A DNA stretch of 64,000 nt. It comes from Erythrobacter sp. (GTDB lineage Bacteria; Pseudomonadota; Alphaproteobacteria; Sphingomonadales; Sphingomonadaceae). The notes below the pieces were generated by a model. That model searched no databases. It was not told the origin of the DNA and saw only the letters and a program-made list of their open reading frames with translations. The stretch covers positions 144,385-208,384 of the forward strand of contig JAILWQ010000002.1 of NCBI GenBank assembly GCA_025698865.1, written 5' to 3'. This document shows positions 3,917-36,646 of this stretch, one piece after another; position 1 is the first letter of the stretch, and the number at the start of each line of letters is the position of its first letter. The translations under genes and the position numbers were made by a program.

Positions 3917-5608
3917 ATGCCGACTGAGCTCGACAAGACACTCGACGCGATCATGGACCAGCTGACCGCGCCCGGTGCCCCCGCCGAAACGGTTCCCTTC
4001 ACCCGCAACGGCGTCGAAATGCCGGTGCTCAAGAACGCACCGCCCAGCATGGCGCATTATTTCGCGCATTACTGCAACGAGCACAGGGAGGCCGAATTCC
4101 TGGTCGATCCGGCGCAGCGCCTGACCTTCGGCGAGACCTATGCCGCGGCGCGGCACGTCGCGGCCGGGCTGATCGCGAAGCACGGCATGAAGCGCGGCGA
4201 CCGGGTAGCGATCGGCGCGCGCAATTCGGCCAACTGGATCGTCGCCTATATGGGCATCCTGATGGGCGGCGGCTGCGCGACCCTGCTCAACGGGTTTTCC
4301 GCCGGAGACGAGCTGGCCGAACAGATCGACATGGTCGAATGCCGGCTGGTGCTGGCCGACCGCCAGCGGGCCGACCGGATCGAAGGCCATTCCCACGGCG
4401 CGAAGGTGGTCCTGATCGATCACGATGCGCCGCCTGCCCAGGGTCTCGCCGAAATCTGGGGCGATCCCGCGTCCGTCGAACTGCCCGAACTCGGGCCGGA
4501 CGATCATGCCACGCTGCTCTACACCTCGGGCTCCACCGGCCGGTCCAAGGGCGCCTATTCGGACCATCGCGGCGTCGTCCACGGCTCGATGAGCTACGCG
4601 CTGCAATCGCTGATGGCCTTCACCTATCTCGGCTCCACCGGCGATGCGCCGACCAGCCAGGCCTGCGCGCTTCTGGCGGTGCCGCTGTTCCACGTCACCG
4701 GCGAAGTGCCACTGTTCCTCCAGAGCTTCGCGCTCGGCCGCAAGATCGTGCTGATGGCCAAGTGGGATGCGGGCGAGGCGCTGCGCCTGATCCAGGACGA
4801 GAAGGTCAGCTATTTCGCCGGGGTCCCGCTGATGACCTACGAGATGGCGACCCATCCCGAGCGCGACCGCTACGACGTCTCGACCTGCTCCGGCTTCGCC
4901 GCCGGCGGCGCGCCGCGCCCGGTCGAGCACGTGACCAAGATCAAGGAAGCCTTCCCCGCCGGCAACCCGCTGCTCGGCTATGGCCTGACCGAGACGAACG
5001 GCGTCGGCTGCGGCAACTTCAACGAGAATTACCTCGCCAAGCCCGCCAGCACCGGCAAGCCGAGCCGCCCGCTGGTCGATCTTGCCATCCTCGACGATGA
5101 CGGCAACCGGCTGGCCCAGGGCGAGGTCGGCGAGGTCTGCCTGCGCTCGGTCTGCAATTTCGTCGGCTACTGGAACAACGAGGAAGCGACGAAGGCCGCC
5201 TTCACCGACGACATGTATTTCCGCACCGGCGATCTCGGCCGGCTCGACGAGGACGGCTATCTCTTCATCGTCGACCGTAAGAAGGACATCATCATTCGCG
5301 GCGGCGAGAACATCGCCTGCATCGAGGTGGAGGATGCGATCTACGCCCATCCCGATGTCGCCGAATGCTCGGTCTTCGGGCTGCCGGACAAGCGCTATGG
5401 CGAGATCCCCGCCGCGGTGTTCCTGACGCACGAAGGCAAATCGCTGAGCGCCGACGAACTGCGCGATTTCCTCGAGGGGCGGATCGCCTCCTTCAAGGTG
5501 CCGGCCGTCTTCTGGCAGGCGACCGAACAGCTCCCGCGCCTGGGCACGCAGAAGGTCGACAAGCGCGCCGTTCGCGACAGCTACGCCCGGGAATACGCTG
5601 CGGCATGA
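3917..5608 (+). CDS. Class I adenylate-forming enzyme (long-chain acyl-CoA ligase-like)
   Basis: AMP-binding motif 'LLYTSGSTGRSKG', plus 'GYGLTE', 'FRTGDLG', 'DRKKDIIIRGGENI'. Confidence 0.92.
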   Translation: MPTELDKTLDAIMDQLTAPGAPAETVPFTRNGVEMPVLKNAPPSMAHYFAHYCNEHREAEFLVDPAQRLTFGETYAAARHVAAGLIAKHGMKRGDRVAIGARNSANWIVAYMGILMGGGCATLLNGFSAGDELAEQIDMVECRLVLADRQRADRIEGHSHGAKVVLIDHDAPPAQGLAEIWGDPASVELPELGPDDHATLLYTSGSTGRSKGAYSDHRGVVHGSMSYALQSLMAFTYLGSTGDAPTSQACALLAVPLFHVTGEVPLFLQSFALGRKIVLMAKWDAGEALRLIQDEKVSYFAGVPLMTYEMATHPERDRYDVSTCSGFAAGGAPRPVEHVTKIKEAFPAGNPLLGYGLTETNGVGCGNFNENYLAKPASTGKPSRPLVDLAILDDDGNRLAQGEVGEVCLRSVCNFVGYWNNEEATKAAFTDDMYFRTGDLGRLDEDGYLFIVDRKKDIIIRGGENIACIEVEDAIYAHPDVAECSVFGLPDKRYGEIPAAVFLTHEGKSLSADELRDFLEGRIASFKVPAVFWQATEQLPRLGTQKVDKRAVRDSYAREYAAA

Positions 5609-27692: not shown

Positions 27693-29156
27693 GTGCGCTC
27701 CTCCCTGCAGATCTGGCCCCGGAGCCTGCTCGGCCAGACCCTGCTGGCGACCGCGCTGGCGCTTCTGGCCGCGCAGGCGATCTCGACGTTCCTGCTATTC
27801 CGCGCCGCCGAGGAGCGGCACGAGACCGCGCTGGTCAACGCCGCCGCCTTTCGCCTGATCGGCGGTGCGCGACCGGATCGCAACGGTCGCGCCATCGCGC
27901 GCGAGCGGCGTGGCGAACGAGCAGACGGCCGGCGGATCGAGCGGCGGGAATGGCCCGGCGGCGGCATGGGGGGAAGCCATTTCCCGCGCCGCTTCGCCTA
28001 CCAGCTGTCTCCCGCCTCGCCCGTACTCGCAGAAGAAACCCGCGACCAAGCGCGCGAGGCCGCGCTGCGCGACCTGCTCGACCGGCAGGGCATCGCCGTC
28101 GCCGACCTGACCGTGACCGAGCGGCCGCTGATGTCCGACCCTCTGTTGCAGAAAGCGAGCGCGCGCCGGCCCCGCCTGCGCACCCGGCTCGCTGCGGAGA
28201 GCGGGCAGGCGCTGCTCGTCGCCGGGCTGCGCCGCGACGGTGCCGCGCAATGGGAGGTGGTCCGCGTGCCCATTCGCGAGCGGGAGAACCGGGCAATCCG
28301 GGCGATCCTTCTCCAGACCCTCGTCCTGTTCGTGGTGCTGATGGGCCTGCTGTGGCTGGTCCTGCGGCGGATCACCCGGCCGCTTGCCGATCTGCGCGCC
28401 CGCACCGCGCGTTTCAGCGCCAGCGGCACGCCGTCCGAGCCGCTGGCGGTGCGCGGGCCTTCCGACATCTCCTCCCTCATCGCCGCGCACAATGCGATGG
28501 AGGCGCGCATCGGCGCCATGCTGAACGAGAAGGACGTGATGCTCGGCGCGATCGGCCACGATCTCAAGACCCCGCTCGCCGCGCTGCGCGTGCGGATCGA
28601 GGCGGTCGAAGACGAAGCCCAGCGCGAGCGCATGGCGGCGACGATCGAGGAACTGGTCCGCACGCTCGACGAGATTCTCGAGCTTGCCCGCGTCGGCCGG
28701 GCGGACGCACCGCCCGAGCGCGCCGAACTCTCGACCCTCGCCGCCTCGGTGGTCGAGGAATTCGAGGATATGGGCCAGCCCGTCGCCATGGCCGAAGGGC
28801 CCCGCATCAGTGCGCCGGTCCACATCACCTGGCTGAAGCGGGGCTTGCGCAATCTGATCGCCAACGCCGTGCGCTATGGCGGCGAGGCCGAAGTTTCGGT
28901 GCAGCGCGAGGGCGATGAAATCGTGCTGAGAGTCGAAGATCGGGGGCCGGGCATCCCCGGGGACCGGATCGCCGCCATGCTCGAACCCTTCGTGCGCGGC
29001 GAGGCGAGCCGCAATCGCGAGACCGGCGGGGCGGGCCTCGGCCTGACGCTCGCCCGCGCGGTTGCCGAGCAGCATGGCGGCGCGCTGGTGCTGACGAACC
29101 GTGCGGGCATTGGAGGTGGGGGCGGGCTGCGCGCCGAGCTGCGCCTGCCCGCCTAG
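27693..29156 (+). CDS. HAMP sensor histidine kinase
   Basis: Two TM segments flanking a periplasmic domain, HAMP, H-box 'GHDLKTPL', N-box '[10 protein letters not shown]', G boxes 'DRGPGI', 'GAGLGL'. Confidence 0.95.
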
Positions 29157-34068: not shown

Positions 34069-34095
34069 CAATGCTCCGATCCCACTATCCGGAGC

Positions 34096-34758
34096 ATGAG
34101 AACATTGCGCATACCTCACGGTAAATCGATCGCTTCGGCCATGGCGCTTGCCGTGGCCGCGGCCGTTCCCGCAACCTATTTCGCCGCGCCCGCCCCGGCC
34201 TTCGCTGCCGAGGGCGATCTCGACCGCGCCGTCGCCGCCCTGCGCGGCATTTCGACGATGAAGGCGGCGTTCACCCAGACCGATCGCCAGGGCCGCACCA
34301 TCGGCGGCGAACTGACGCTGAAGCGTCCGGGCAAGATCCGCTTCGAATACGACAAGAGCGCCAACATGCTCGTCGTCTCGAACGGCAAGTCGCTCTATCT
34401 CGTCGACTACGAGGTCGATCAGGTCCAGCGCTGGCCGATCAGCAATTCGCCGCTCGGCGCGCTGCTCGATCCCAATCGCGACGTGAAGCAGTACGGCAAG
34501 CTCGTCCCCACCGGGAATGCGGGCGTCGTCAGTGTCGAGGTGCGCGATCCCAAGCGTCCCGAATTCGGCATGATCACCCTGATCTTCACGCGCAACGCGT
34601 CCGCACCCGGCGGATTGCAGCTGACCAACTGGGTCGCGCTCGATTCGCAGAACAACCGCACCACCGTGCGGCTGTCGAACCAGCGCTACGGCGTGTCGGT
34701 GGCGGACAGCGCATTCACCTTCCGCGACCCTCGTCGCTCGTCCCGCCGACCGGGCTGA
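34096..34758 (+). CDS. lolA: Outer-membrane lipoprotein carrier protein LolA family
   Basis: Signal peptide; 'AFTQTD', 'LKRPGKIRFEY', 'LVVSNGK', 'SPLGALL'. Confidence 0.9.
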   Translation: MRTLRIPHGKSIASAMALAVAAAVPATYFAAPAPAFAAEGDLDRAVAALRGISTMKAAFTQTDRQGRTIGGELTLKRPGKIRFEYDKSANMLVVSNGKSLYLVDYEVDQVQRWPISNSPLGALLDPNRDVKQYGKLVPTGNAGVVSVEVRDPKRPEFGMITLIFTRNASAPGGLQLTNWVALDSQNNRTTVRLSNQRYGVSVADSAFTFRDPRRSSRRPG

Positions 34759-34847
34759 ACGGAGCGCGGTCGAAATGAGACGAACCTGCGGTCAACCGCA
34801 GGGTTGCGTTCATAAAGGATCAATGCGGACCGGCCTAGAAATCAAAT

Positions 34848-34967
34848 CACAGGACGGATGAAGACGGGTTCCCCCCTGTTGCCTGTCATTCGCTAACCGC
34901 CCTGTACCAAGCGTGACGAACGCACAAAGGAACCCTCGTGCCAATGCCCCCGGCACGAGGGTTTTTT
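34848..34967 (+). ncRNA. Candidate trans-acting sRNA (~120 nt, three hairpins ending in an intrinsic terminator)
   Basis: Long imperfect stem 34849-34905 with apical loop UUCCCCCCUGUUG; small stem 34911-34923; perfect 12-bp terminator stem 34931-34963 plus U-tract. Confidence 0.6.
34931..34967 (+). terminator. Intrinsic terminator
   Basis: AACCCTCGTGCC-AATGCCCCC-GGCACGAGGGTT-TTTT. Confidence 0.9.
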
Positions 34968-35143
34968 GTTATCCGGCGTTCGGGTGTCGAACCGGTTTTC
35001 GCTTTATCTGTCCTCGGCGCTGTTTCGACGCTGGCGCGTCGAGCACCTGCGGGCGGGCGGTCGCCCTTGCCGGGCCTCCCCCGGCCCGGAGGTTCTCCAC
35101 CCGCTGCTCCAATTCTCCCGACGTCTCGGCCAGGTTGGAACTG

Positions 35144-36568
35144 CTACTCCCAGCCGAAGGCGCGACGGATGATGTGATAGATCAGGTTCTGCTCGATCAC
35201 GCCCTTGACCCCGTCGCTGCCCGGACCCTCGGCGAACAGCGCCACGTCCTCGCCTCCATGGGTCTCGGCACCAAGCGGAATCAGTGCCTGCTGGCGCGCG
35301 GCGATCCCGGTTTCGGGCATCGGGCGCTCCCCCGTGAACGCGCCCGGACCGGTCGCGTAGCTGAGCGTGGTGAAAGGCTTGCCGTCCGCGGCCAGCACCG
35401 GACCCTCGCCGCCCGGCCCATCCTCGCCGCCGCCCTCGGGCGCCTCGACCAGGCCGAGGATCGGATTGCCGCGCTTGGGATAGCCCGACATTGTGAAGAC
35501 ATGGCTGTGATCGGCGGTGACCATGATCAGCGTCTCGGCCGGGTCGGTGTGGTCGATCGCGTACTGGACCGCATTGGCCAGCTCGTCCGCTTCCTCCAGC
35601 GCATAGCCCGCCCGGCCCGCGTGATGGCCGTGATCGATCCGGCCGCCCTCGACCATCAGGTAATAGCCCTGCGGATCGTCATCGAGGCGGCGAATCGCCG
35701 CCGCGGTCATCTGGGTCAGCGTGGGCTCGCTGCTGTCGTCAGCACGTTCGGCCATGTAGGTCATATGGCTGGGCGCGAACAGGCCGAGGACCGGCTGGTC
35801 TTCCGGCGCGGCCGCGAGCTCGGCAGCGGTCGAGACCACGCTGCCGCCGGTGCGCCCGGCCCATTCGGCGGGCAGGTCGTCGTTCTCGGCCGTCCGGTCA
35901 CCCTGGCCCGCCTTGCCGAAGAACGTCGCGCGCCCGCCGCCTAGCGCCACGTCGAAATCGGTCTCGACCAGCTGGCGGGCGATGTCGCGACACCCAAAAT
36001 TGGCCTGTTCGGAGGAGATCACGCCATCGCTCTCCCAGTTGCGGTCGACGCTGCGGGCATAGACCGAAGCGGGCGTCGCATGGGTCAGCCGCGCCGTGCT
36101 GACGATGCCGAGCGCGAGCCCGCGGCGCTTCACCTCCTCGCCGAGCAGGGGCAGATGATGCTGCTCGCCCACCAGGCAATCGCCGCGCGGTGCGTCCGGC
36201 CCGATGCCGAGCATCCCCAGCCGCGTCTTGACGCCGGTGTGGATCGCGCTCGCCGTGCCGGCGCTGTCGGGCACCTGTGCGTCGGTGTTGTAGGTCTTGA
36301 CCAGCGCCACGTGATCGAACGTCTCGAACGGCAGGACATATTCCTCGCCGCTCTGCCCGCGCTTCTGCCCGGCATAGATCCGCGCCGCGGTGATGGTGGA
36401 GATGCCCATGCCGTCGCCGATGAAAAGTATGACGTTCTTCGCCCGCGGTGCATCCGGGGCCGGGGCGGAGGCCACGCGCTCCGTGCCGGTCGCGCCCGCC
36501 GTGCAGCCGCCGAGGAGGGGCGAAAGGGCGGCGGCGGCCATGCCGAGAGCGAGGGGGGTACGGATCAT
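35144..36568 (-). CDS. phoA: Alkaline phosphatase (PhoA family), lipoprotein
   Basis: Lipobox LGGC; 'NVILFIGDGMG', catalytic 'PDSAGTAS', 'THATPA', 'EGGRIDHGHH', 'VTADHSH', 'ETHGGEDV'. Confidence 0.93.
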   Translation of the reverse strand: MIRTPLALGMAAAALSPLLGGCTAGATGTERVASAPAPDAPRAKNVILFIGDGMGISTITAARIYAGQKRGQSGEEYVLPFETFDHVALVKTYNTDAQVPDSAGTASAIHTGVKTRLGMLGIGPDAPRGDCLVGEQHHLPLLGEEVKRRGLALGIVSTARLTHATPASVYARSVDRNWESDGVISSEQANFGCRDIARQLVETDFDVALGGGRATFFGKAGQGDRTAENDDLPAEWAGRTGGSVVSTAAELAAAPEDQPVLGLFAPSHMTYMAERADDSSEPTLTQMTAAAIRRLDDDPQGYYLMVEGGRIDHGHHAGRAGYALEEADELANAVQYAIDHTDPAETLIMVTADHSHVFTMSGYPKRGNPILGLVEAPEGGGEDGPGGEGPVLAADGKPFTTLSYATGPGAFTGERPMPETGIAARQQALIPLGAETHGGEDVALFAEGPGSDGVKGVIEQNLIYHIIRRAFGWE

Positions 36569-36628
36569 GGCGACGGGGTCTCCTGAGAAAATGTCTGCGC
36601 GCGTGCGGCGCTTACATGCATCCGCTTG

Positions 36629-36646
36629 ATGACAAAACCGTGAGCC
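36629..36646 (-). promoter_or_regulatory. Pho-box candidate upstream of the alkaline phosphatase
   Basis: Minus strand GGCTCAC-GGTT-TTGTCAT, against CTGTCAT-N4-CTGTCAY (4/7 and 6/7 matches). Confidence 0.45.

Follow-up and report, generated by a model that had tools for sequence, protein, structure and literature searches.

The 64,000-nucleotide stretch of Erythrobacter sp. DNA that was analyzed here (the window) very probably contains a genuine, conserved structured RNA gene at positions 34849–34967 of the forward strand, in the gap that follows lolA. Taken as a whole, this element is in our judgment probably a trans-acting small RNA (sRNA) of ~119 nt that belongs to a new family and whose C-rich loops would pair with G-rich sites in mRNAs. 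The initial annotation had proposed an undescribed sRNA at this position, and that proposal has held in kind, as the element is structured and unannotated, has no Rfam match, and combines a conserved loop with covarying stems.

The gap itself is gene-free over 385 bp (34759–35143), as had been stated initially, and separates the open reading frames (ORFs) of LolA and an alkaline phosphatase. Further out, the neighbors are a gene for ribosomal protein L33 on the upstream side of lolA and, past the phosphatase, an exonuclease III-like gene. The nearest relatives of the LolA protein were those of Qipengyuania and other Erythrobacteraceae (83–85% identity). The RNA element is single-copy within the 64-kb window, based on a search with a covariance model (R1). 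The features of the locus are as follows:

34093–34758, forward strand: lolA (outer-membrane lipoprotein carrier; Pfam LolA, 9.7e-25), the upstream neighbor, outside the RNA itself
34808–34813, forward strand: upstream box GTTCAT (consensus RTTCAY), about -40 to -35 from the predicted transcript start
34820–34825, forward strand: second promoter box, TCAATG in the window (consensus G(A/C)(A/C)AG(C/G)), in the spacer just past the -35 position
34836–34841, forward strand: -10-like hexamer TAGAAA, inside CCTAGAAA (34834–34841)
34849–34905, forward strand: stem-loop 1, three stacked helices (minimum free energy (MFE) fold, covariation, and alignment-free z-score)
34869–34881, forward strand: apical loop of stem-loop 1, UUCCCCCCUGUUG, 13 nt (MFE fold)
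34911–34923, forward strand: hairpin 2, a 4-bp stem-loop, GCGU-GACGA-ACGC (MFE fold)
34924–34930, forward strand: A-rich single-stranded linker, ACAAAGG, A-rich in most homologues
34931–34967, forward strand: intrinsic terminator, 12-bp stem of 34931–34942 with 34952–34963 (MFE fold)
35144–36568, reverse strand: alkaline phosphatase ORF, convergent (Pfam, 1.3e-112)

Several other features were noted around the element. Just 3' of the lolA stop codon, and in the window only, there is a hairpin (34785–34802, CCTGCGG-TCAA-CCGCAGG) that could be a weak lolA terminator or a piece of the upstream promoter region. The 208 nt from the sRNA terminator to the 3' end of the phosphatase gene (34970–35177) are an indel among close strains, being missing from two related loci (L002 and L042) and skipped in a contig from a public sequencing run, X2; a GC-rich hairpin, GGGCCTCCCCCGGCCC, lies within this indel at around 35063–35078. 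Upstream of the alkaline-phosphatase gene (36600–36640, reverse strand) we noted TTTTGTCATCAAGCGGATGCAT, with one TGTCAT half-site, and no clear tandem Pho box was found in that region.

Folding of positions 34840–34972 with ViennaRNA produced an MFE structure of -54.2 kcal/mol (z = -5.93), a value that none of 200 dinucleotide shuffles equaled. All of the pairings listed in the initial annotation are present in this structure, base for base. The outer helix of stem-loop 1 pairs 34849–34857 with 34897–34905, with one unpaired base on each side, the middle helix pairs 34859–34862 with 34889–34892, and the inner helix pairs 34863–34868 with 34882–34887, including one G-U pair. The short second stem that had been claimed corresponds to hairpin 2, and the perfect 12-bp terminator with a C-rich loop was likewise recovered (34931–34963), its loop being AAUGCCCCC (34943–34951) and its U-run occupying 34962–34967. 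A simple terminator scan had no match at the element because the terminator loop is 9 nt and the scan takes loops of 3–8 nt. The 3' U-run has six residues in Erythrobacteraceae and is shorter (CCUUUCC) in Sphingomonas. The A-rich linker and the U-tail could be putative contacts for Hfq. One locus, L015, has a second, partial copy of the element at 3921–3961 that consists of the terminator module only (42 bits); it lies past an N run in a metagenome-assembled genome (MAG) scaffold and is probably an assembly artifact.

The element was proposed as belonging to the Sphingomonadales at large, and comparison of lolA loci from this order bears this out. We fetched 80 genome loci via LolA and found the element, linked to lolA, in 79 of them in one copy each, by anchoring on the loop, by nhmmer, and with covariance model R1; in the 80th (L069) the sequence ends short of the element, and one further locus (L055) is cut. 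A nhmmer search with the 136-nt element produced a match downstream of lolA and on the same strand in all 50 of the Erythrobacteraceae loci (E-values of 5e-31 to 2e-5), and matches in Sphingobium and Sphingomonas were in the same place after lolA but weak. The range of the element thus covers Erythrobacteraceae, Sphingomonas, Sphingobium, and many uncultured relatives.

The linkage to lolA was also apparent when loci were found by the RNA alone. Scanning of metagenomes with the pattern TTCCCCCCTGTT-N50-80-TGCCCCCGG identified at least 120 loci, one of which (L112) was a chance match and was left out of the genuine set. Among the matches listed, lolA was directly upstream and on the same strand in 113 of the 114 genuine loci that had upstream sequence, and their LolA proteins had 49–87% identity to that of the window. 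The spacing between the lolA stop codon and the RNA was almost always 80–190 nt. The only genuine copy without LolA, among the matches listed, was in L081 (sRNA at ~9449, in the orientation with the RNA on the forward strand), which has the full promoter block described below, yet has no LolA upstream by tblastn. Fixed linkage of this kind, which is evidence from gene neighborhood, suggests a role for the RNA in envelope or lipoprotein homeostasis. Two other elements were noted in these loci: a multi-copy repeat just 3' of a Sphingomonas copy (L068:3817–3937), at which contig depth reaches 1139 in comparison to ~15 in the flanks, and a terC RNA (RF03067, 53.9 bits; L099:759–833, reverse strand) in a metagenome locus that also bears the sRNA.

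The initial annotation had expected a conserved loop and covarying stems, and both were found across the lolA loci of Sphingomonadales. Stem-loop 1 was missed by RNAalifold on MAFFT alignments, in which its 3' arm is out of register, and hairpin 2 and the terminator were found. For this reason, a covariance model was derived from the window and L002 together with the MFE structure, and 78 homologues were aligned with it. In that alignment, standard pairs made up 95.1% of cells versus 76.1% in shuffles, with none of 500 shuffles reaching the observed value, and when partners were slid by 1–3 columns as a control only 41–59% of cells were paired. Two-sided changes occurred in 27 of 36 pairs (554 cells). 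All 18 pairs of stem-loop 1 were changed on both sides among 77 distinct homologues, some with six pair types, and in the terminator there were compensatory changes in 8 of 14 pairs with the loop core GCCCCCG kept. Since the covariance model fits the alignment to the structure, and so biases these counts towards it, two alignment-free checks were added. Stem-loop 1 folded alone had a median z-score of -2.6 over the 78 homologues, with 71% below -2, and MFE folds of the individual sequences placed the C-tract in an apical loop in nearly all homologues.

While the stems drift, the loops do not. The initial annotation had allowed for the outcome of an unconserved loop; the core of loop 1, CCCCUGUU, instead proved constant, being invariant in 79 sequences. 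AAGCGUGACGAACGC and the core of the terminator loop, GCCCCCG(G), are nearly invariant even as the stem sequences diverge widely, and overall the UUUCCCCCCUGUUG and (A)UGCCCCCGG loops together with hairpin 2 are held nearly constant. Hairpin 2 is invariant in Erythrobacteraceae and Sphingomonas, and Sphingobium has a different hairpin at its position, GCGCUUCAAGGGCGC, in which C-G replaces U-A. The conserved unit of loop 1 is a run of five or six C residues followed by UGUU. The hexamer GUUCCC, which had been put forward as an AbcR-like seed, did not stand up as such, as it is confined to the window and the two nearest relatives (L001 and L002), and loop 1 of the other homologues is GUUUCCCCCC, AUUCCCCCC, or UUUUUCCCCC. 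We propose that the apical loop, with its C-tract and UGUU, is the main seed of the RNA and that the terminator loop is a second C-rich seed. Stems that drift with compensation around exposed loops that stay fixed are the reason for which we read the element as a base-pairing sRNA with loop seeds.

Between the lolA stop codon and the RNA there is a promoter-like block, RTTCAY-N6-GmmAGs-N9-CTAnAW, that was conserved in 170 unique upstream sequences. Its first box was present in 169 of these (TTCAT or TTCAG in 151 and GTTCAC in 18), the remaining one being GTTAAT, and it is at a fixed distance from the TA of the -10. The six variable bases that follow often resemble a -35 hexamer (e.g., TTGGCA, TTTACA). 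In the second box the position frequencies are G 87%, A 98%, and G 81%, and the window and L002 have a divergent version, TCAAT(G). The -10-like element that the initial annotation had pointed to was found within CCTAGAAA, and its T and A, at +27 and +28 from the TTCAT box, are each 96% conserved across the family. The housekeeping -10 of Alphaproteobacteria is CTAnAW, and the window hexamer and the conserved TA fit such a -10. A simple sigma-70 promoter scan found nothing here; its consensus is of the E. coli type and the -35 region of the window is weak. The first helix of the RNA begins ~12 nt after the -10 TA, and the transcript start is therefore predicted to be near 34848 (34847–34849).

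A strict composite version of this motif occurred 69 times in the 1.36 Mb of fetched DNA, each time at this RNA, with no second site elsewhere in that DNA. We read the two boxes on either side of the -35 as the putative operator of some regulator. Candidates for that regulator were considered and did not fit well. The ChvI consensus, TTGC-N3-GCAA, fits poorly and was rejected, and a CenR-type TGA-N8-TGA repeat can be matched to the reverse complement alone, in Sphingobium and approximately also in the window; CenKR has been reported to be absent from Sphingomonadales. In many Erythrobacteraceae (L005–L050, e.g., L010:3575–3600), though not in the window or L002, a conserved imperfect palindrome, GTTGTA-N7-GCGACAA, lies ~25 nt upstream of the GTTCAT box and might serve as another site for a regulator.

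The main alternative is that the element is simply the 3' untranslated end of the lolA mRNA with its terminator, working in cis in termination and protection from 3' exonucleases, with neither a promoter of its own nor a function in trans. This would account for the element being consistently directly 3' of lolA on the same strand, for the lack, in most loci, of an evident terminator separating lolA from the RNA, and for the weak -35 region in the window. Public runs labeled as RNA contain the element at 97–100% identity, although these runs were picked for containing the sequence and their contigs may include DNA. The contigs are of low depth, and they extend past both predicted ends of the RNA, break at strain-variable sites or conserved k-mers, or span the flanking genes. 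One contig from run X2 extends from 34471, inside lolA, to 34966, stopping at the end of the U-run, which is compatible with read-through from lolA that ends at the terminator and speaks for this alternative. We nevertheless consider it unlikely. A stabilizer in cis needs its stems, but here the stems drift while the loops and hairpin 2 are fixed, and the promoter-like block, with its 96% TA at a fixed distance in 170 unique sequences, precedes a first helix that is placed as would be expected of a primary transcript.

Our reading of the element as a base-pairing sRNA raises the matter of its targets. A complement of at least 9 nt to the loop was found within the window only on the RNA's own antisense strand. 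The best RNAduplex energy over 172 putative translation-initiation regions was -25.2, no better than the mean of -27.9 for shuffled loops, and there was no G-tract in the initiation region of lolA. A GGGGGGAA site at 27968 was considered as a target and rejected, as it is not at a gene start. The lack of a convincing target says little because only 64 kb of sequence were covered. The same result can be set to the credit of a different explanation, in which the RNA binds protein as a decoy, sponge, or scaffold and the C-rich loops and hairpin 2 are seen by that protein; moreover, most sRNA seeds are less strictly conserved than these loops and hairpin 2. We regard this as improbable, as there is no candidate protein partner at the locus, the studied C-rich apical loops that we found (GsrN, AbnZ, and 6C) all work by base pairing, and the failure to find a target comes from just those 64 kb.

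Overall, the analysis inclines us, by a modest degree, towards action of the RNA through loop-mediated base pairing in trans. As a sequence of events, the RNA would be transcribed from its own sigma-70-type promoter with a start at ~34848, and a regulator of some kind would act at the two boxes flanking the -35. Read-through from lolA may also end at, and be processed into, the same RNA, and, given the weak -35 region and the empty sigma-70 scan, it might even be the sole source of the RNA. The mature RNA would then act in trans, its exposed C-tracts pairing with G-rich segments that lie at ribosome-binding sites or close to them, and this pairing would alter the translation or stability of the target mRNAs.

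A more specific and speculative scenario, which we think doubtful, is that the RNA serves homeostasis of outer-membrane lipoproteins and the envelope at the post-transcriptional level, that it and lolA have been inherited together ever since the order arose, with a regulator controlling it at the RTTCAY and GmmAGs boxes, and that its two loops grip envelope mRNAs at their G-tracts as a double clamp. If true, it would represent a circuit like those of MicL and AbnZ assembled from unrelated parts. The outer membrane of Sphingomonadales has sphingolipids in place of LPS. Sphingomonadales include pollutant degraders, marine aerobic phototrophs, plant-associated Sphingomonas, and common reagent contaminants, and their RNA regulators are almost unknown, with SuhB of Sphingopyxis the sole characterized sRNA that we found. 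An RNA that has invariant loops, is order-wide, and is locked to an essential envelope gene likely controls something important. The element also offers handles for further work, namely two short seeds, a unique promoter motif, and a covariance model with which hundreds of genomes could be annotated.

Comparison with known RNAs showed no prior description of the element. The initial annotation had asked for it to be checked against Rfam, and searches of Rfam 15 gave no match on it (at the gathering score for the whole window, E ≤ 10 for the gap, and E ≤ 1 for five diverse homologues), and hence it is not an already-known Rfam RNA. The literature on sRNAs of Sphingomonadales, Erythrobacter, Zymomonas, and Sphingopyxis, searched along with the sequence motifs, contained no description of it, and neither the motif nor lolA was found in the supplements of the Zymomonas sRNA papers and the Sphingopyxis SuhB preprint.

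The known sRNA that is closest in form is GsrN of Caulobacter crescentus, a sigma-EcfG-dependent RNA in which six tandem C residues in the 5' loop pair with G-tracts and which activates katG (PMC5869019). GsrN is, similarly, an alphaproteobacterial RNA of ~110 nt with a 5' stem-loop at the transcript start (predicted for the lolA-linked RNA) and an intrinsic terminator, and a GsrN-type C6 loop is present in the 5' stem-loop here, UUCCCCCCUGUUG. That the element is the Sphingomonadales orthologue of GsrN is, in spite of these resemblances, very unlikely. The flanks of the loops differ (ACGCCCCCCGACUU in GsrN versus UUUCCCCCCUGUUG), and the lolA-linked RNA has a second C-rich loop, in its terminator. 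GsrN has an EcfG promoter and a stress-response locus and the lolA-linked RNA has neither: the EcfG motif, GGAAC-N15-18-SGTT, occurred in 1 of 182 upstream regions, and there off promoter distance, and the linkage is to lolA rather than to ecfG-nepR-phyR. A nhmmer profile of 78 family members had no match at E ≤ 100 in the gsrN locus, as taken from the supplement of PMC5869019, whose authors did not see a gene like gsrN in Erythrobacter litoralis. The lolA-linked RNA is a candidate for the gap that they noted, being a C6-loop sRNA in the family of Erythrobacter whose locus and transcriptional control differ from those of gsrN.

The comparison made initially was with the rhizobial AbcR1/2 sRNAs, and this analogy gained no support in our analysis, nor did the Hfq dependence and the transporter mRNA targets suggested along with it. 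The likeness is that of an alphaproteobacterial sRNA with a C-rich, anti-Shine-Dalgarno-like motif, and the window copy does contain GUUCCC, which is the M2 motif of Brucella AbcR. Membership of the AbcR (alpha-r15) family is nonetheless extremely unlikely and was rejected, as the Rfam ar15 model had no match at E ≤ 10, GUUCCC lacks conservation across the family, a CUCCCA motif and a tandem copy are both absent, and the synteny of AbcR1/2 is unlike that of the lolA-linked element. The notion that the locus encodes a micro-protein is scarcely credible, as the 12-codon frame that is open in the window (ATG at 34858 to TAA at 34896, MKTGSPLLPVIR) is not conserved, its stop being lost in L002 and its ATG absent from most homologues, and substitutions keep base pairs rather than codons.

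Two other groups of sRNAs are comparable in how their loops are built. AbnZ of Caulobacter, a repressor of tamAB, is a 3'-derived sRNA whose apical loops are C-rich (PMC11724286). It shares with the lolA-linked RNA a pair of C-run apical loops, which in AbnZ are aimed at G-rich tracts near the start codon, and an envelope-biogenesis context, both RNAs being placed 3'-terminally in a transcription unit related to the envelope. AbnZ differs in having runs of 7 and 16 C residues that vary in length by species and a GC content of ~78%, whereas the loops of the lolA-linked RNA are short (5–6 C) and strictly conserved, and AbnZ is processed from an efflux-pump operon, whereas a promoter-like block precedes the lolA-linked RNA. 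In actinobacteria, the C-rich apical loops of 6C recognize G-tracts at or near ribosome-binding sites. RNAs of the 6C, sX13, and RsaE type, from actinobacteria, Xanthomonas, and Firmicutes, are built of at least two hairpins, the C-rich loops of which pair with ribosome-binding regions that are rich in G. The lolA-linked RNA resembles them in its multi-hairpin, C-loop architecture and high-GC hosts, but the taxa and sequences are unrelated and there was no Rfam match to any of them. It is on the precedent of GsrN, AbnZ, and 6C that we propose pairing of loop 1 (C6-UGUU) and the terminator loop (GC5GG) with G-rich sites.

SuhB/MmgR (alpha-r8, RF00519) is likewise a Sphingomonadales sRNA with a C/U-rich anti-SD motif. 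It was rejected as the identity of the element, as RF00519 had no match on it in the window or in five diverse homologues. SuhB/MmgR RNAs are 61–77 nt in length, that of Sphingopyxis being reported as 61 nt, and have a CCUCUCCU-type motif; in Sphingobium, SuhB and the element lie on opposite sides of lolA. The RF00519 model works on this order, since it found a true suhB copy in Sphingobium just upstream of lolA (L058:2740–2814, 49.9 bits). A suhB upstream of lolA was also observed in L051–L053, L059, L060, L069, L070, L072, L082, L122, L168, and L188. The lolA of Sphingobium is thus flanked by two sRNA genes, and the window has no suhB copy.

A possible parallel that is functional only, in outer-membrane lipoprotein traffic, is provided by MicL, a sigma-E sRNA of E. 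coli by which lpp is repressed and the Lol pathway relieved. MicL is related to the lolA-linked RNA in neither sequence nor structure, and the link to Lol here is one of gene neighborhood. Considering these systems together, the lolA-linked RNA is best filed among the sRNAs with C-rich loops, as a family that is new to Rfam and to the literature that was searched.
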